NCBI GenBank assembly: GCA_964016885.1
Contig: OZ024742.1
Span: 331,886,001 to 331,950,000, forward strand
Origin: Eledone cirrhosa
Taxonomy: Eukaryota
Direction: 5' to 3'
DNA length: 64,000 nt
The translations under genes and the position numbers were made by a program. This document shows positions 509 to 48,626 of this stretch, in pieces; position 1 is the stretch's first letter; every line of letters begins with the position of its first letter. The notes below the pieces were generated by a model. It saw only the letters and a program-made list of their open reading frames with translations, made no database searches and was not told where the DNA came from.

Positions 509-776
509 TTTTTCAATGATTGTTTACATACTTGACCTCCTTTTCAACACAAGAGAAATACGGAAACATATGTATATCTTGAATATATACATATAAAACT
601 AAATATAGTTAGAGTTGCTCCTGCCAACATATCTCTACCATCTCTTCTCATATCCTTATCTAAACTCCCATGATCCCCACATACACAGTTGATATACATA
701 CATCAATATATACATATGTTTCCGTATGTCTCTTGTGTTGAAAAGGAGGTCAAGTATGTAAACAATCATTGAAAAA

Positions 777-3255: not shown

Positions 3256-3306
<51 letters not shown>

Positions 3307-3407
3307 TATTGAAATTTCCGTAGAAAACAGAAAAGGTCATAGAAGTGAAGTGTGCTCTATGTAATTACCAGAGCAAAATTTAATGTATAAAAATCAATAG
3401 AATATAA

Positions 3408-3483
3408 TTACCTCATTACCAGAGGTTTCCCGAATGAGGCGAATACGAAAGAAACGTCTTCATTCGTTCGTGAGACGAGGCAA
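3408..3483 (-). ncRNA. PLE-A hammerhead, core mutated (CUCACGA)
   Basis: UUGCCUCGU-CUCACGA-a CGAAUGA..UCAUUCG g-GAAA-CC ucu GG-UA^-AUGAGGUAA; 9-bp stem I. Confidence 0.65.
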
Positions 3484-4821
3484 TATAAAACATGACTAAA
3501 TACTTGGAAAGTCTCATCAAGAAAAGCATTATATATAAACAAATGATCTTTCAAGAAATATAGTTAGGTGTGTGTATATGTATGTATATACTCTCACAGA
3601 TGTACATACGTGTGTATGTCACATGTGTACGTATAGTGAAAAAGTGTCGTAAATATATGTGTTAGGGCTAGTGTATCTATGTATCTGTAAACTACAGACA
3701 GCCATGATGTGATTCTCTGTCTGGCAGGTAAACATAAAAACAGGGTATTAGATACATTATAAGAATATGAAGGCGCGCGTATAAACACACCTACACGCAC
3801 GTACACTTATATGCGGAAGTAAATGAGGTAAGTGAGTGTAATAATTAAAAGAAACTATCATTCTCGATATATTTATAAAAATGGAACAATAATTTAGAAA
3901 GAAAAAAATTAAAGAAAAGAAGACAAACAAGGTACACGTGTACACACACACATATATCTACAAGAAACGTATATCTATAAGAAATATATATATATACACG
4001 CAAAAACGTGCAGACAAAAGCGTATGCAAGCACACATACGCACACAGGATGCACATATATACGCATATACGCCTCGCCCCATGAATATCTAAATACGCGC
4101 ACGCACGCGACTGTATACACACTCGCACACACACACTCACACAAATATGCATGCTTATATACATACGCAGACTTACACTTCCATACAATCGGTACGTACA
4201 CACACACACATACATACACTCACGCATATTGACCTGTTTACATGCACACACATAAAAATTAGGATGTAAAAAAAAGAAGAAAGCACAAAAACAAAAAACA
4301 TAGATGTAAAAACACAGAAATAAAGACACATATACATACACACATATATATTTACACGAACCCGCGCGCACATACGGAGACGTTCGTGTAAATATATAGA
4401 AAGTATACACACATTAAAGCACTCAGGCACATATATACAGGGTGGAAAGAGCCTTGTGGATAAGTAAGTACAAATATAAAATTATAAGATTGGTTGCGAA
4501 ATAACAAAAAAATATCTGGAGGGGAAAACGCAAGTGACTATGTAATAAGTTAGGGAAGAAAATAGTGGAAAGTGAAGATATTAGGTAAGTGAATCGGAGA
4601 ATAAAGGGGGGGGGGTTAAAAGGTGGATGTGAAGTAAAAATAAAAATATATAAAAATAAAAATAAAAATAAAAATAAAAATAAAAATAAAAATAAAAATA
4701 AAAATAAAAATAAAAATAAAAATAAAAATAAAAATAAAAATAAAAATAACAATGAAATTAATAATAAGGATAAAAATGAAAGTAAATCAGACAGGGTAGT
4801 CATAAAGAGAATAATAAGAGT

Positions 4822-6943
4822 TTATGGAGGATAAGTATCTGAAAGTGTGTTAAGTTTATATGAGCTGGAAAGCAGGGGTGATTTCATGTGTGGGCAACTG
4901 GTGAAAATTTCTGTCTTTGTGTTTAGGCAGGTCTTTGGTGATTTAAGATTTTGCAAGATCCAATATTTTTCATTTATGCAGAGCGTGCATTTTCTTGTTC
5001 CTCTTGCATATTCTTTAGATTGGTTCAACATTGACCAATCTCATTTATATTGGATACCTTGGTCTTTCAAAACCCATATTCTGCTAGCCAGAGCTGTTGT
5101 AAATCTTTTTTCTGGATGTCGAAATGATGCGACATGTGAGTAATAACGCGTTTTGAATTTGTCTTGCGTCATACCCACATATCGTTCACTGGTGGCTGGA
5201 TCGTTGTTGCTGATGGTTGTCACTTTAGCCGCATATACAATGGCTTTGGTGTTGCATTTACCTTGTAATGGGCATTCACTTTTGATTCTACAGAAGCAAT
5301 TTTGATGTTCTCTAGCTGATTTTTTGTTGATGATATAGGATTTAATAGGGGGACCGCAGGAGTAGCTAATTTTGACACAGTTTCTATTAAAGATCCTATA
5401 GTATCTATGTGTTCTAGGGAAATGTTTATCTAGGATTTCTAGGAATTTTTTGCCTACGTTAGTTTTAACTGCTAGAGAGTAGGGGGGGGGGGGGTGAACC
5501 AGATTATTTTTCTTTTTCTGTTTTTATGTTTAATAGAGTTAGTATAGTTGGGTATGTATTTAATCGGTTCGCTAAAACCGCTATTTTGGAGGGCTTTATT
5601 ATAGTAGGGGATGCCTTATTAAAAATAGCTTCTGAGGAAGAGAGGGTGGAGATCCTACGGCTAATATTAGGGATAAGGTTTTTAAAAACTATAGGAGGAT
5701 GGCAAGAGCCTTTATTTATATATTTTAAGTTTTCATTAGGTTTATGGTATGTTTTATAAGAAGCAGTAGGCAAATCTATGTTTATATCTAGGAAATCTAC
5801 ATTGGAAAGGTTAGTGTCAATAGTAATTTTAAGATTAAAACTAGCGAAGGTTTTTATTAAGTCTTTCCTTAATCTATCTAAGTTATGGCCTATGGTGGTA
5901 TGGGAAAGTATTAGACCATCGTCGCGATAAAGCCCCAAAATATGGTTAGTAATTTTTTCTTTAAGTGTGTGTAGGAGGAATAGGCCGACAAACATCAGCA
6001 CTGTCATAAGAGCCCATTGAGACATCGAATGGGCTCTCTGGGTTAGATATTTTTACCCAAGTGTCATTATCAGTAAAGAGTAGAGTGTTTCTAGCGTGCA
6101 AGATGAAATGCACTTCAATATCGGAGATATTAGTAAACCTTCTAGCGAAATTTAAGGCTTTCGCTAAAAGGGTCTGAGTGATAAATGGGTAGAAATCTAC
6201 AATGTCAAATTGGGTGAAACTAGAACTATTTTTGTTTTTAATATTATTAAACCAATGTTTTACGGAAGAGCTATTCATACATTGGTGTAAGTTAGACTTA
6301 CTTCTAATGTGTGTATTTATATTATTTAAACATTTTTTGCTGGCAAGACCAATATCAGTCTTAGCAGGGTTGATTAATCTACAACTAGGACGATTAATAA
6401 AGTCGGGTTTGTGATCTTTAAGGGTGATATAACCATTATGTTTAGCAAGTTTTTCTGTCCTATTATCTATTTTTAAAGAAACAGCTAATTCTTTAGCTTC
6501 CTTATTTATATTATGATACCTGTTTATATTAGCTATTTGGTATTTAGAGGTGATATTATCTATTAATAGTTGGTCGTGTAAATTATTGTTAACTTCATAT
6601 AGGTTTTTAGTTTTATCGGAGATGAACTTATTATTAGAAGATTTGAATGTTGAAATATCATTAGATAGTTTAAATTGAAAAGGGTTAGAGTACTTACGAA
6701 AATTGATATTGTTGATAAGGTTAACTAGGTCAAGTTCAAAAGCGGTCATATCTTTTACTCTTTGCTTATGAGTTTTGATGTCAAAATATTCCGTAGAATC
6801 CGTGTTAAAGTGTCCATCGAGAATCAAAGCTTTCCATCTCATTCTTTTAACAACCTTCTCTACTTTGTCTATCAGTATTTTCGTGTAGAGAGTGATGGTG
6901 TTGGGATATTATTTACAGAGTAATCCAAAGGGTATCTATCCAT
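4822..6943 (-). pseudogene. PLE-A polyprotein (RT + GIY-YIG endonuclease), frameshifted
   Basis: MDRYPLDYSVNNIP..KRMRWKA; FDIVDFYP; FDVSMGSYD; GLYRDDGL; RYVGMTQDKFKTRYYSH..CTLCINEK..LNTKTE..CPH across ORFs 5961-6842, 5504-6025, 5041-5223, 4822-5031. Confidence 0.9.
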
Positions 6944-7163
6944 GTTCAGTATTGGTTTAAAATTCTATGAGTGAAGAGTGCTCGACTTTATAAGGGCTGG
7001 AAGGTGCCAATCTCATAAAGATGTAGAATATGCTGCGATCATTCCGTTGGGAGCTATATAAGTATTGAAATTTCCGTAGAAAACAGAAGAGGTCATAGAA
7101 GTGAAGAGTGCTCTATGTAATTACCAGAGCAAAATTTAATGTATTAAAATCAATAGAATATAA

Positions 7164-7239
7164 TTACCTCATTACCAGAGGTTTCCCGAATGAGGCGAAT
7201 ACGAAAGAAACGTCTTCATTCGTTCGTCAGACGTGGCAA
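7164..7239 (-). ncRNA. PLE-A hammerhead, intact core
   Basis: UUGCCACGU-CUGACGA-a CGAAUGA..UCAUUCG g-GAAA-CCUCUGG-UA^-AUGAGGUAA. Confidence 0.8.
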
Positions 7240-8653
7240 TATAAAACATGGCTAAATATATGGAAAGTCTCATCAAGAAAAGCATTATATATAAATATAA
7301 ACAGAGGAATTACAATGGTCATATGAAATATATAAAAATATTTCAAGAAATATAGCTAGGTGTGTGTATATGTATGTATATACTCTCACAGATGTACATA
7401 CGTGTGTATGTACAAATGTGTACGTATAGTGAAAAAGTGTGCGTAAATATATGCGTTAGGGCTAGTGTATCTGTGTATCTGTAAACTACAGACAGCCATG
7501 ATGTGATTCTCTGTCTGGCAGGTACACATAAAAACAGGGTATTATAAGAATATGAAGGGCATTATAAGAATATGAAGGCACGCGTATAAACACACCCACA
7601 CGCACGTACACTTATATGCGGAAGTAAAAGAGGTAAGGGAGTGTAATAATTAAAAGAAACTATCATTCTCGATATATTTATAAAAATGGAACAATAATTT
7701 AGAAAGAAAAAAATTAAAGAAAAGAAGACAAACAAGGTACACGTGTACACACACACATATATCTACAAGAAACGTATATCTATAAGAAATATATATATAT
7801 ACACGCAAATCGTGCAGACAAAAGCGTATGCAAGCACACATACGCACACAAGATGCACATATATACGCATATACGCCTGGCCCCATGTATATCTAAATAC
7901 GCGTACGCACGCGACTGTATACACACTCGCACACACACACACACAAATATACATGCTTATATACATACGCAGACTTACACATCCATACAATCGGTAAGTA
8001 CACACACACACACACACACATACATACACTCACGCATATTGACCTGTTTACATGCACACACATAAAAATGAGGATGTAAAAAAAAAGAAGAAAGCACAAA
8101 AACAAAAAACATAGATGTAAAAACACAGAAATAAAGACACATATACATACACACATATATATATATATATATATACGCACGCGCGCGTACATACGGAGGC
8201 GTTCATGTACATATATAGAAAGTATACACACATTAAGGCACTCAGACACATAGATACAGGGTGTAAAAAGCCTTGTGGATAAGTTAGTATAAAATATAAA
8301 ATTATAAGATTGGCTGCGAAATAACAAAAAAATATCTAGAGTAGAAAACGCAAGTGACTATGTAATAAGTTAGTGAAGAAAATAGTGGAAACCGAAGATA
8401 TTAGATAAGTGAATCGGAGAATAAAGGGGATGGGGTTACAGGGGGATGTGATGTAAAAATAAAAAAAAATAAAAATAAAAATAAAAATAAAAATAAAAAT
8501 AAAAATAAAAATAAAAATAAAAATAAAAATAAAGATAAAAAATAAAAATAAAAATAAAAATAAAAATAAAAATAAAAATAACAATGAAATTAATAATAAG
8601 GATAAAAATGAAAGTAAATCAGAAAGGGTAGTCATAAAGAGAATAATAAGAGT

Positions 8654-9425
8654 TTATGGAGGATAAGTATCTGAAAGTGTGTTAAGTTTATATGAGCTGG
8701 AAAGCAGGTGTGATTTCATGTGTGGGCAACTGGTGAACATTTCTGTCTTTGTGTTTAGGCAGGTCTTTGGTGATTTAAGATTTTGCAAGATCCAATATTT
8801 TTCATTTATGCAGAGCGTGCATTTTCTTGTTCCTCTTGCATATTCTTTAGATTGGTTCAAAATTGACCAATCTAATTTATATTGGATACCTTGGTCTTTC
8901 AAATCCCATATTCTGCTAGCCAGAGCTGTTGTAAATCTTTTTTCTGGATGTCGAAATGATGCGACATGTGAGTAATAACGCGTTTTGAATTTGTCTTGCG
9001 TCATACCCACATATCGTTCACTGGTGGCTGGATCGTTGTTGCTGATGGTTGTCACTTTAGCCGCATATACAATGGCTTTGGTGTTGCATTTACCTTGTAA
9101 TGGGCATTCACTTTTGATTCTACAGAAGCAATTTTGATGTTCTCTAGCTGATTTTTTGTTGATGATATAGGATTTAAAAGGGGGACCGCAGGAGTAGCTA
9201 ATTTTGACACAGTTTCTATTAAAGATCTTATAGTATCCATGTGTTCTAGGGAAATGTTTATCTAGGATTTCTAGGAATTTTTTGCCTACGTTAGTTTTAA
9301 CTGCTAGAGAGTAGGGGCGGGGGTGAACCAGATTATTTTTCTTTTTCTGTTTTTATGTTTAATAGAGTTAGTATAGTTGGGTATGTATTTAATCGGTTCG
9401 CTAAAACCGCTATTTTGGAAGGCTT
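8654..9425 (-). pseudogene. PLE-A linker and GIY-YIG domain (5'-truncated tandem copy)
   Basis: ORF 8654-9055 is nearly identical to 4822-5223 but lacks the internal stop. Confidence 0.85.
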
Positions 9426-9611
9426 TTGGGGCAGCCCTCATTTGATTCTAGCAAGGTCGCAGTAAATACCGAGCATGGGGAGGGATGAGGTGAATATATA
9501 AATATTGCGGTAAGAGATATCAACTGTGTATGTGGGGATCATGGGAGTGTAGATAATGACATGAGAAGTTCCCAGTGTCCCCGCATTGCCTGGAAATTTA
9601 GCTGAGAATAG

Positions 9612-9690
9612 ATTCCCTGATGACGTAAGGCTTCTCCATAGTTATTACGTAACTATATTTATCCCCTCACAGAAACTAATTAGTTGGAGT
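9612..9690 (+). ncRNA. Type I hammerhead with expanded stem II
   Basis: AUUCC-CUGAUGA-cGUAAGG..CCUCACa-GAAA-CUAAUUAG-UU^-GGAGU. Confidence 0.75.
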
Positions 9691-10136
9691 GAAATGTTAG
9701 TAAGTAAGTCAATTTTCATAACTTTCTTATTTACGTCTTTCATATAATTGTTCTGCACCCCCCTGCATAGAACCATAAAGTTACTAAAACAAAACACATA
9801 TATATTTGCTAGCATAGGTATGCATATGTATACATATGTCGGTAGATATATTAATTCTTTATAATTATCTCCAAATTATTTGTTGAGCAAAATTTGCCGA
9901 AATTACTACTGTGACTGATAGTAGTGGCTAGGCTCTGTCTTAATTGCACCCCCTCTCCTAGCTGATTAACCTCAGTGTCACGTGATTGATTCTTTTGAAT
10001 TTGCCACTTGACCAAGTAGGCATTGAATTTTTCAATGTCTTGGAATCTAGCCCCGCTCGCTTTTTTCCATCCACTGAATTATTTTTATATAAGTTCCCAG
10101 TGTCCACGCATTGCCTGGAAGCTTAGCTGAGAATAG

Positions 10137-10215
10137 ACTCCCTGATGACGTAAGGCTTCTCTATAATTATTACGTAACTATATTTATCCCCTTACAGAAA
10201 CTAATTAGTTGGAGT
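10137..10215 (+). ncRNA. Type I hammerhead with expanded stem II
   Basis: ACUCC-CUGAUGA-cGUAAGG..CCUUACa-GAAA-CUAAUUAG-UU^-GGAGU; 12-nt palindrome AACUAAUUAGUU. Confidence 0.82.
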
Positions 10216-10258
10216 GAAGTTTTAGTAAATCAATTTTCATAACTTTCTTATTTACGTC

Positions 10259-10310
<52 letters not shown>

Positions 10311-10319
<9 letters not shown>

Positions 10320-10575
10320 GATATTAAATAAATGTAAACTATATTTATAGAATCATATTTATTCTATTATATATATTTGAAGGGTACCAACACTTTTCTA
10401 CGGTCTCATCAGATAATATACAAAGTTTGTTTTATAAATATTGACATATCCAGGAAGGAGATCTTAACTGTTCAAGTTTTTCCCGGATATGTCAACATTT
10501 ATGAAACAAATAGGTATTTTATCTGATGAGAGTGTTACATAGTTTTGGTACCATTGAAATACATATAAATAGCAG
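10311..10575. mobile_element. Fold-back fragment with two decayed HHRs (family of 34987 and 45705)
   Basis: Starts attcaatgatattaaataaatg after (TA)n; tcatcagataa near 10406 and ttatctgatga near 10519 in inverted orientation. Confidence 0.55.
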
Positions 10576-19477: not shown

Positions 19478-19663
19478 ATATATATATGTATATATATATA
19501 TTGTTATACTTTGGGAGGGTCAAGTTGCCAATAAGAAACACACGCACCAGTTGCTTTCACTTCAATTTATTATATATTTATATATTTATAAATTTACAAA
19601 TCTACAAATCTATAAATTTCTGGTTGGTTGGTTGGTTCCACAACCAGATAGTTGTTTATATAT

Positions 19664-19708
19664 AGTCATAGTCCTTTCGTCACACACTCTGTGACCTCTT
19701 CAGTGACT
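19664..19708 (-). ncRNA. PLE-B minimal hammerhead
   Basis: AGUCA-CUGAAGA-g GUCACA gagug UGUGAC-GAAA-GgaC-UA^-UGACU. Confidence 0.75.
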
Positions 19709-19721
19709 GGGGATTCCTTTC

Positions 19722-19766
19722 AGTCACTGAAGAGGTCACAGAGTGTGTGACGAAAGGACTATGACT
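19722..19766 (+). ncRNA. PLE-B minimal hammerhead
   Basis: agtca ctgaaga g gtcaca gagtg tgtgac gaaa ggac ta tgact. Confidence 0.75.
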
Positions 19767-20018
19767 ATATATAAACAACTATCTGGTTGTGGAACCAACC
19801 AACCAACCAGAAATTTATAGATTTGTAGATTTGTAAATTTATAAATTTATAAATATATAATAAATTGAAGTGAAGCAACTGGTGCGTGTGTTTCTTATTG
19901 GCAACATGACCCTCCCAAAGTATAACAATATCGGTTTCAACACACGGTTTCAGATAAAGAATCTTGCTAAACAAATTCAGAAACGAAATATATATATATA
20001 TATATACATATATATATG

Positions 20019-24017: not shown

Positions 24018-24062
24018 AGTCATAGTTCTTTCGTGACACACTCTGTGACCTCTTCAGTGACT
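24018..24062 (-). ncRNA. PLE-B hammerhead (inverted arm)
   Basis: AGUCA-CUGAAGA-gGUCACA..-GAAA-GaaC-UA^-UGACU, one stem II mismatch. Confidence 0.65.
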
Positions 24063-28566: not shown

Positions 28567-28630
28567 TAAAAGACGTACAATAAGAAAATTTAAAATAAAA
28601 TTAAAAATTAACTTACTTACTACAATTTTC

Positions 28631-28712
28631 ACTCCAACTAATTAGTTTCTGTAATGGGATAAAGATAGTTACGTAATATAACCATCGAGAATTCATTACG
28701 TCATCAGGGAGT
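28631..28712 (-). ncRNA. Type I hammerhead with expanded stem II
   Basis: ACUCC-CUGAUGA-cGUAAUG..CAUUACa-GAAA-CUAAUUAG-UU^-GGAGU. Confidence 0.82.
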
Positions 28713-29175
28713 CTATTCTCAGCTAAGTCTCCAGGCAATGCGCGGACACTGGGGTCTCATACAAAAATAATAATAATTCGGTGGATGGAATAGCTAGCGG
28801 GGACTGGATTCCATGCACTGAAAAAGTTCGCTGTCTCTTGTCAAATGGCAGATTCTAAAGAATCAATCACGTGACACTGAGGCTAGTCGGAAGGAGTGGG
28901 TTTGTAAGATGACAAAAGCCTACTACCACACCAATGAATTAGTAGTGGATTTGGCAGGCTTGCTCAACAAATAAATAATTTGGAGATAGATATAGAGAAT
29001 TTAGTATATCTACCAACATATGCGTACAGATGCACACTAATGCTAGCAAATACATAAGTTATGTCATAGCACCTAGGTGGTTCAATGCAGGAGGATGCAG
29101 AACAATAAAATGAAAGACGTAAAATAAGAAAATAAAAAAAAACAATTAAAATTTAACTTACTTACTAAAATGTTC

Positions 29176-29257
29176 ACTCCAACTAATTAGTTTCTGTAAT
29201 GGGATAAAGGTAGTTACGTAAAATAACCATCGAGAATTCATTACGTCATCAGGGAGT
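29176..29257 (-). ncRNA. Type I hammerhead with expanded stem II
   Basis: Same fold as 28631-28712; predicted cleavage sites 545 nt apart. Confidence 0.82.
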
Positions 29258-29508
29258 CTATTCTCAGCTAAGTCTCCAGGCAATGCGCGGACACTGGGGA
29301 CTCATATAAAAATAATAATATTTCGGTGGATGGAACAGCTAGCGGGGACTGGATTCCATGCACTGAAAAAGTTCGCTGTCTCTGGTCAAATGGCAGATTC
29401 TAAAGAATCAATCACGTGACACTGAGGCTAGTCGGAAGGAGTGGGTTGGTAAGATGACAAAAGCCTACTACCACACCAATGAATTAGTAGTGGATTTGGC
29501 AGTAGTGG

Positions 29509-30462
29509 ATTTCATCAGTAATCTTCCAACCTTCATTGGTATTTCATCGCTTTAAAGAGCATATTTGATGGTCTTTATTCTCTCACGTCCACGATTTCAC
29601 AGAACTTATATTCATCGATTTCTGTGACTTGACTCCTTCATCCTCACTTTTCGTTGCATTACCTTCTTTGATTGTTTACAGTCTCGCTCGTTCCCCTTAT
29701 TTACGTGTCCCAGCGACTTTCTTTAGCCGTTGCTCACACCAACCGGAGGTATATGGTCTTTAAAGCGATGAAATACCAATGAAGGTTGGAAGATCACTGA
29801 TGAAAGACTAAATTTATTCATATGTAACACATTTGCAACCTCGCAGCACGTCTTGTTTTCATATTCACATATATATATTTTCCTCCGATGTGACCCGTCT
29901 TTTTCTTTCTTACTGGTTCCTCTTCCTCTGTATATCTCACTTCCCTTTCCCCCTCTAACAGTCACTCTCTCTGTTAGCCACTTCTTCACCCTTCACTCAC
30001 TCACTCTCTGCTACTCCCTCTGCTACTTCGTCCGGTTTGACCTGTGCGAGATTCTTTCTTCACGCACACTTTGACCAGGTTGATTGTTCCTTTTTTTCTC
30101 TCTTGTCTACTATTTCACAGAACTTATGTTCACCGAATTCAGGGACTAGACTCCTTCTTCCTCCCGCTTGACCTGTGCGAAATTCTTTCCTTGCTCACAT
30201 TTCGACTAGGTTTGATGGTCTTTATTCTCTCTCGTCAAAGATTTCACAGAACTTATATTCATCGATTTCTGGGACTTGACTCCTTCTTCCTCACTTATCG
30301 TTGCATTACCATCTTTGATTGTTTACAGTCTCGCTCGTTCCCCTTATTTACGTGACCCACGACTTTCTTTAGCCGTAGCTCGCACCAACCGGAGGTATAT
30401 AGTCTTTAAAGCGATGAAATACCAATGAAGGTTGGAAGATCACAGATGAAGGACTAAATGTA

Positions 30463-47918: not shown

Positions 47919-48626
47919 CTGAAAACGTGTGTTGAAACCGATATTGTTATACTTTGGGAGGGTCATGTTATATACATATAGATATATATATATATATATA
48001 TTGTTATGCTTTGGGAGGGTCATGTTGCCAATAAGAAACACACGCACCAGTTTCCGCATGTGATACATCAGGGTGTTTTTGTTTTCTCTTTGATATTTTT
48101 CTTTAATTTTGTTTTTTTTAATTTAACTCCAACCAAAATTAAAATTAAAGAGAAAACATGAATGCAATAGCAACATCACAACTTACAATTAAGGACAAAA
48201 TGAAAACACACACACACATAGAATAAACAACCAACCAGTAACATGTAAATAAACAAATAAATAAACAAATATAAACGCAGACAGACACCACGATGTAACA
48301 CATGCGCAAACTAAGCACACAACACACACAATAACAAGATGGCGTAGGACAGAAAAAGGAGAGGCACAAAAACAAAGAAAAGAATCCCAGTCACTGAAGA
48401 GGTCACATAATGTATGACGAAAGAACTTTGACAATATATGAACAAAGGTCCGATTATGGAACCAACCAACCGGGAATTTATAAATTTGCTATCACAAAAT
48501 AAATTGGAGTGATAGCAACTGGTGCGTGTGTTTCTTATTGGCATCGTGACCCTCCCAAAACATAACAATATCGTTTTCAACACACGTTTTCAGATAAAGA
48601 ATCTTGCTAAACAAATTCAGACACGA

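Follow-up and report, generated by a model that had tools for sequence, protein, structure and literature searches.

Two hammerhead ribozyme (HHR) motifs in direct repeat beside a (TA)n tract in the genome of Eledone cirrhosa raise the question of what kind of element they belong to and how it reached its site. The stretch of DNA that was analysed comprised 64,000 nt and is called the window below. The original prediction placed two direct-repeat HHRs here with cuts after 9685 and 10210, no open reading frame between them and an end at (TA)n, and all of this was reproduced. The two type I motifs, each with a GUU triplet at the predicted cut, were situated within a direct repeat of about 176 nt (9566-9741 and 10091-10262; start to start 525 nt), whose copies were identical at 163 of 172 aligned letters, plus 4 gap letters. 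In the tandem unit, ATG ORFs reached at most 31 aa in sense and 56 aa in antisense, so that it had no coding capacity, and the repeat was followed by the target microsatellite (TA)26 at 10263-10314. Both motifs had the same layout from 5' to 3': stem I 5' strand, CTGATGA, C, a 6-bp stem II, A, GAAA, stem III, GTT with the cut directly after it, and stem I 3' strand. Stem I contained 5 bp, stem II carried a branched insert of 34 nt and stem III was palindromic. HHR1 (9612-9690, plus strand) contained one A.C mismatch in stem II, and HHR2 (10137-10215, plus strand) had intact stems I-III. The unit from cut to cut (9686-10210, plus strand) folded better than its shuffles (z -3.6).

The whole retrozyme arm (9566-10262, plus strand) consisted of 1.33 tandem units, was truncated at the 5' side and terminated at a fixed "short" (S) 3' end. 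Internal copies of the end sites were found at 9730-9746 (plus strand, +56 to +61 after the cut) for the S end, a predicted start of reverse transcription, and at 9841-9863 (plus strand, +178 after the cut) for the "long" (L) end, a second predicted start. A second copy of the family, 78% identical and with a period of 545, two HHRs and an S end at (TA)n, was located at 28568-29560 on the minus strand. The window locus is an ordinary aged copy with a single S-end arm, and it contains two HHRs because of where copying stopped. The two direct-repeat HHRs seen earlier as flanks of a monomer were thus confirmed, and a designed terminal redundancy was not, as the 5' end at 9566 was one of many scattered truncation points and the 3' end was a fixed site.

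Rfam gave no hammerhead match in the window, either at the gathering score or at E<=10. Comparison of 49 distinct HHR copies showed that 96.3% of the stem cells were paired, with five pairs changed on both sides, while slid controls gave 29-49%. The motif was non-canonical throughout the family: its triplet is GUU, and one additional A separates C11.1 from G12. In the youngest subfamily, both strands of stems I and II were altered, and the core, the C/A mismatch and the GUU were kept; since these features persisted while the stems co-varied, the GUU and the extra core base are traits of the family and not decay of the window copy. GUU hammerhead sites are usually weak. From the GUU site and the extra core base, weak self-cleavage would be predicted for this family. 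A working GUU site was shown in one study (PMC9217987).

In folding calculations, the free fold of either window copy was more stable than its hammerhead fold by 2.5 kcal/mol, and the window HHRs taken alone did not surpass their shuffles (z 0.01 and -0.17). Whole units, with a GC content of 0.34-0.37 in the family, folded much better than shuffles in both linear and circular form, the circular z ranging from -3.6 to -9.0 (5 units, 20 shuffles each). In the alignment fold, a conserved six-base strand in the middle of the unit paired with the 3' strand of stem I. Of 47 circular folds, 30 showed this pairing with P>0.5 and three formed stem I; both partners were changed in the young subfamily. 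In the window the putative blocker (9953-9958, plus strand) was complementary to the stem I 3' strand apart from one broken pair, the complementarity being kept in most relatives. The mid-unit strand could hold the ribozyme off; we treat this as a lead, because common descent makes the pairing nearly one event and an exact six-base match is expected by chance at a frequency of about 0.08 per unit.

A search of the 3.0-Gb genome gave 2,461 exact matches to the 23-nt HHR core and none to its reversed control, so the abundance of the core is beyond chance. Exact S-end and L-end patterns numbered 1,867 and 1,871 genome-wide, and the family was present in contigs of three sequencing runs from one sample (kind of run unrecorded). 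The loci sampled were the first 69 of contig C1 in the list of core matches, together with loci found by their 3' ends. Their units were 506-554 nt long, with one of 478. Counted from the predicted cut, the 3' ends of the family fell at two fixed positions, +61 for the S end and +178 for the L end, and (TA)n or (TC)n followed in 104 of 107 S and L ends, while the 5' ends were scattered. An inverted arm of the same family was joined head-to-head at the 5' end in 162 of 203 end-ascertained arms. Among the 69 loci, all 35 classifiable inverted pairs consisted of one S and one L end, and 12 more pairs had an unclassified end; the larger set of arms gave 83 LS, one LL, no SS and 84 unclassified. 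The cut site was crossed seamlessly at least once in 138 of 186 arms and two cut sites in 30, up to a maximum of three, which describes tandem units and not LTRs around a unique interior. A complete cut-to-cut unit ran upstream into the next unit at 68 loci. Some loci were segmental duplicates, and a young subfamily at 99% identity comprised 23 loci. The retrozyme-like, non-coding character first assigned to the window locus was thus borne out by the copy structure across the genome.

Two further features of the family were observed. In one subfamily (e.g. L067, L071, L072 and L119), a (TC)n run of variable length separated the L end from the (TA)n, which suggests slippage of the reverse transcriptase on a TCTC motif at priming. 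One long array, at L391-L395 (C5:11.373-11.380 Mb), comprised at least nine young-subfamily units and an inverted arm, with one private allele in nearly all units and a three-unit sub-period; this sub-periodicity is DNA-level duplication.

A coding Penelope-like element (PLE) lies directly upstream of the retrozyme arm in the window. It occupies 3305-9426 on the minus strand as a partial tandem, with a frameshifted element (3305-7054, minus strand; reverse transcriptase and GIY-YIG) having an L-type end at (TA)n and an unrelated HHR of its own at about 3411-3480, followed by a 5'-truncated tandem copy (7055-9426, minus strand; endonuclease and 3' UTR) that lies back-to-back with the retrozyme arm. 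The element contained the Hydra motifs RWK, DKT, a CxCx5C linker, CxxC and CxH, a C-terminal GIY-YIG, an HHR and a (TA)n insertion, and its assignment to the Hydra clade was made by comparison of these motifs with those described in PMC8557442, not by a tree. Pfam gave no relevant match for the ORF pieces. The 3' UTR was about 1.5 kb and rich in microsatellites, and the HHR of this element had a long stem II with an A/G mismatch at its base; a 1x1 mismatch at the base of stem II was similar in the HHRs of the Hydra PLE family and of the retrozyme.

Relatives of this PLE were abundant, with 68,669 first-look candidates in the genome and several open, apparently intact frames of about 720 codons. 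Their ends lay at (TA)n, in either of two fixed positions separated by 73 nt. Thirty end rows were divided into 14 S-type, 10 L-type and six cut by the locus edge, and L plus S was found in all three loci with both ends in view. The Hydra PLE and the retrozyme arm of the window, with an L end and an S end back-to-back, may represent one insertion. This reading is complicated by the junction filler between them (9427-9568, minus strand), of which the first 75 nt were 87% like window positions 644-717, the sole further match found in the genome. Back-to-back joins resembling that of the window occurred at both L225 and L280, while the join at L269 was in sense; all three involved other PLE families.

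The relationship between the units of one insertion was examined through shared variants. In the young subfamily (23 loci, hypervariable recurrent columns removed), units of the same insertion shared non-majority alleles at 2.42/kb when in tandem and at 2.22/kb when in inverted arms, compared with 0.05/kb for units of different loci, an enrichment of about 45-fold. A locus-private allele was common to units in 11 loci; 23 of 135 testable private alleles were shared within a locus, 14 by all units and nine by some. The older set of 207 loci agreed, with 59 shared rare alleles against four in the nearest-neighbour control for tandem units (40 loci; p about 1e-4) and 51 against 10 for inverted arms (40 loci; p about 5e-4). 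Plain divergence within a locus was not below that to the nearest neighbour (median 3.0-3.3% against 2.3-2.4%), the control here being the minimum over many loci. No difference between first and second units was recurrent, with at most three of about 45 arms per column. Copying of arrays from ageing linear arrays would leave private mutations in one unit, and the sharing seen therefore makes it likely, as judged from these sequences, that the lineage of the family passes through a single-unit template, either a circle or a monomer on which the enzyme jumps repeatedly. A circle would account for the sharing most simply, which lends indirect support to the original proposal of a monomer able to circularise. 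The data would also agree with gene conversion, with a linear unit on which the enzyme jumps again and again, or with circles that existed one generation before. The nine alleles found in only some units fit multimer templates or gene conversion; together with the divergence result and the 5' ends described below, they speak against a purely circular template. A circular template had been proposed earlier (PMC4209133, PMC7229834).

The 5' ends were analysed in 186 of 204 arms, after 18 had been dropped as duplicates or misaligned. They were in excess at 0 to +12 after the cut (24 observed, 6.5 expected), which suggests that some templates end there or that the reverse transcriptase stalls at the ribozyme. 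Fifteen of the 24 were fold-backs at a short AT palindrome, and the remaining nine did not differ significantly from the expected 5.4 (p=0.09). A stronger palindrome of 12 nt just upstream showed no excess (six against eight). As proof of cleavage in vivo these ends were rejected, being mostly fold-backs with a non-significant remainder; a cut RNA end and a stop of the reverse transcriptase at a ribozyme stem both fit.

Taken together, we consider it likely that the family is a non-coding tandem HHR repeat, an animal non-LTR retrozyme, which is inserted in trans by the reverse transcriptase-endonuclease of a PLE, most likely of the Hydra clade, the template probably being one RNA unit that is read repeatedly. 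In such a mechanism, an array would be transcribed, and the weak palindromic HHR would cut some of the junctions, probably as a dimer or with the help of protein, so that the released unit could be ligated into a circle or re-used end-to-end. The PLE enzyme would then nick both strands of a (TA)n tract and start copying at +61 and +178, one start per strand; the two ends and their pairing were observed, and the acting enzyme would be that of a PLE. From there, each copy would extend backwards across the unit junction over a distance that varies, after which microhomology would join the two copies head-to-head, or one of them would be lost. The resulting structure, arms of variable length that are head-to-head or single, is the one seen in the genome. 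A bolder version, which we put forward tentatively and with somewhat less than even confidence, is that a dimer of the Hydra-type enzyme binds one circular RNA of about 525 nt, primes at the two fixed sites, one for each nicked strand, and circles up to about three times while the complementary strand keeps the hammerhead off. The arms would then be a genome-scale fossil record of rolling-circle retrotransposition and, if this is true, would give direct evidence from a genome for the step with a circular template that has been suggested for animal retrozymes and PLEs.

A somewhat unlikely alternative dispenses with the circle: the family would derive from PLEs as a non-autonomous element, with linear multimer transcripts, most of them uncut, as its template. 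The HHR would then be carried along with little or no activity, or would serve to bind protein, and the sharing of alleles would arise by gene conversion or from homogeneous parent arrays. HHR cleavage was dispensable for a PLE in vitro, and RNA-seq ends at the cut site were absent for the anole PLE, according to PMC11167929. The mosaic sharing of nine of the 23 private alleles, the DNA-level duplication in the array of at least nine units, and the excess of 5' ends just after the cut, which a circle does not lead one to expect, point in the same direction. Against it, differences between first and second units did not recur at particular positions, private alleles were common to inverted arms as often as to tandem units, and stems I and II co-varied across subfamilies around an unchanged catalytic core. 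Spread of a minisatellite by duplication and recombination of DNA could explain the segmental duplicates and the sub-periodicity of the one long array; for the bulk of the copies it is contradicted by their dispersal, their fixed 3' ends at (TA)n, their scattered 5' ends and their head-to-head inversions, and as a general account it can hardly be held.

The unit might also belong to a coding PLE as its 3' pseudo-LTR, the copies found being truncated ones, or might have arisen from a PLE parent as a rare gutted by-product. Every structural mark of a PLE end was indeed present, and at L269 the arm had sense endonuclease-coding DNA directly upstream. This was the only such case among 203 arms, the other 202 having no sense PLE-coding DNA within 1.5 kb upstream; the queries were the window Hydra proteins only, and a PLE of another clade could have been missed. 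None of the 24 other copies of the L269 coding family continued into the unit, and L269 is a chimera. The unit had no homology to the window Hydra PLE, to two other coding PLE families or, beyond self-overlap, to 166 PLE-motif ORFs. The complete units that continue upstream into another unit, as well as the abundance of the family and its own young subfamily, also speak against this reading, which we regard as improbable; the genome-wide check of whether the copies are simply 3' pseudo-LTRs was answered in the negative with the window Hydra proteins as queries. Chimeric insertions that join a retrozyme arm to a coding PLE of other families were located at L269:2000-3030 (sense), L225:300-1900 and L280 (both back-to-back). 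These few chimeras hint at machinery common to the retrozyme and PLEs. Because they involve different families, and because the unit lacks homology to the three coding PLE families examined, a helper PLE can be proposed and not named.

Compared with published animal non-LTR retrozymes, the family had in common non-coding tandem units (at least two consecutive) with one type I HHR each, a GC content below 45% (here 34-37%), a highly self-paired monomer, mostly short arrays and co-existence with PLEs. Its unit had been thought larger than those of animal retrozymes. The size lies within the reported range of 51-972 bp, for which a mean of 650 bp is given in ray-finned fish (Li, Clavereau & Pollet 2026, bioRxiv 10.64898/2026.07.22.740005), and exceeds only the invertebrate circles of about 170-400 nt (Cervera & de la Pena 2020, PMC7229834). 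The family differed in its minimal-style HHR of the PLE type, with a long stem II, a GUU site and the extra core base, and in the conserved strand predicted to block stem I, whereas most animal retrozymes are predicted to leave the HHR free (PMC7229834). Expression as linear and circular monomer RNA characterizes animal retrozymes and is putative for the present family. In Xenopus, one of nine predicted retrozyme dimers was cleaved in vitro, and animal retrozymes have already been argued to be non-autonomous PLE derivatives (both in Li et al. 2026, bioRxiv 10.64898/2026.07.22.740005). Measured by the sequence-level definition, this is an abundant animal non-LTR retrozyme family, new as a family and of a known kind; the supplementary tables of Li et al. 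may list comparable families. The literature searched, with most subscription journals outside its coverage, gave no match for the family or for allele sharing within arrays.

The marks of mobilization by a PLE were found as well, namely two fixed 3' ends that define a tail, 5' truncation, head-to-head inversion and an AT-rich target. Truncation, inversion and an optional tail are described for PLEs (PMC8557442, PMC3846280), and in vitro work traced the tail to two start sites of reverse transcription, showed nicking and extension on either DNA strand and found that insertion did not require HHR cleavage (Frangieh et al. 2024, PMC11167929). The endonuclease-containing (EN+) PLEs of the Hydra clade (Craig et al. 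2021, PMC8557442) and the in vitro mechanism of PAc (PMC11167929) share with the family (TA)n targeting, 5' truncation, partial tandems, head-to-head inversion and a tail between two fixed ends downstream of the HHR. The family differs from them in the lack of an ORF and in a tail of about 117 nt instead of 30-40 bp. The minimal HHRs of metazoan PLEs (Cervera & de la Pena 2014, PMC4209133) resemble that of the family in the short stem I, the long stem II, the unpaired base between A9 and G10.1, the G10.1-C11.1 pair and the palindromic stem III, for which activity as a dimer is predicted; the extra A between C11.1 and G12, the U at position 17 and the 34-nt branched insert of stem II are differences. 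Plant LTR retrozymes (PMC6765202, PMC7229834) likewise have two HHRs flanking a non-coding unit and an HHR predicted to be blocked in the circle. Their HHR is type III, whereas that of the family is type I, and the family consists of tandem units, not LTRs, with ends of the PLE type, not the Ty3 type.

PLE machinery and a circular template have been proposed, from co-occurrence and phylogeny, as the means by which animal retrozymes reach new genomic sites (PMC4209133, PMC7229834, Li et al. 2026). The family supplies footprints that can be counted, namely the pairing of one S with one L end, a pattern also seen in a coding PLE of this genome, and the probable descent of the units of an insertion from a single one. 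The value lies in these footprints, which make the hypotheses of a PLE helper and a circular template testable, and not in the single locus. Because the genome contains both a young subfamily and Hydra relatives that still have open coding frames (about 720 codons), an in vitro comparison of circular and linear templates is practical.

Several other elements were observed in the window. A different family of compact, canonical-looking type I HHRs was found at 19669-19761, 24023-24057 (minus strand) and 48394-48428 (plus strand), with a head-to-head inverted pair at 19570-19860. An inverted-repeat element between (TA)n tracts at 260-870 contained an HHR-like motif in which U4 of the core was changed to C, and part of it resembled the filler at 9427-9568. 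Directly after the (TA)n tract of the retrozyme arm, a small inverted-repeat element at 10367-10568 carried a CTGATGA core-like motif near 10524. A further tandem-duplicated non-coding element at 29560-30460 (minus strand) abutted the second retrozyme copy, and its short end motif recurred near many loci (e.g. L085, L101 and L115).
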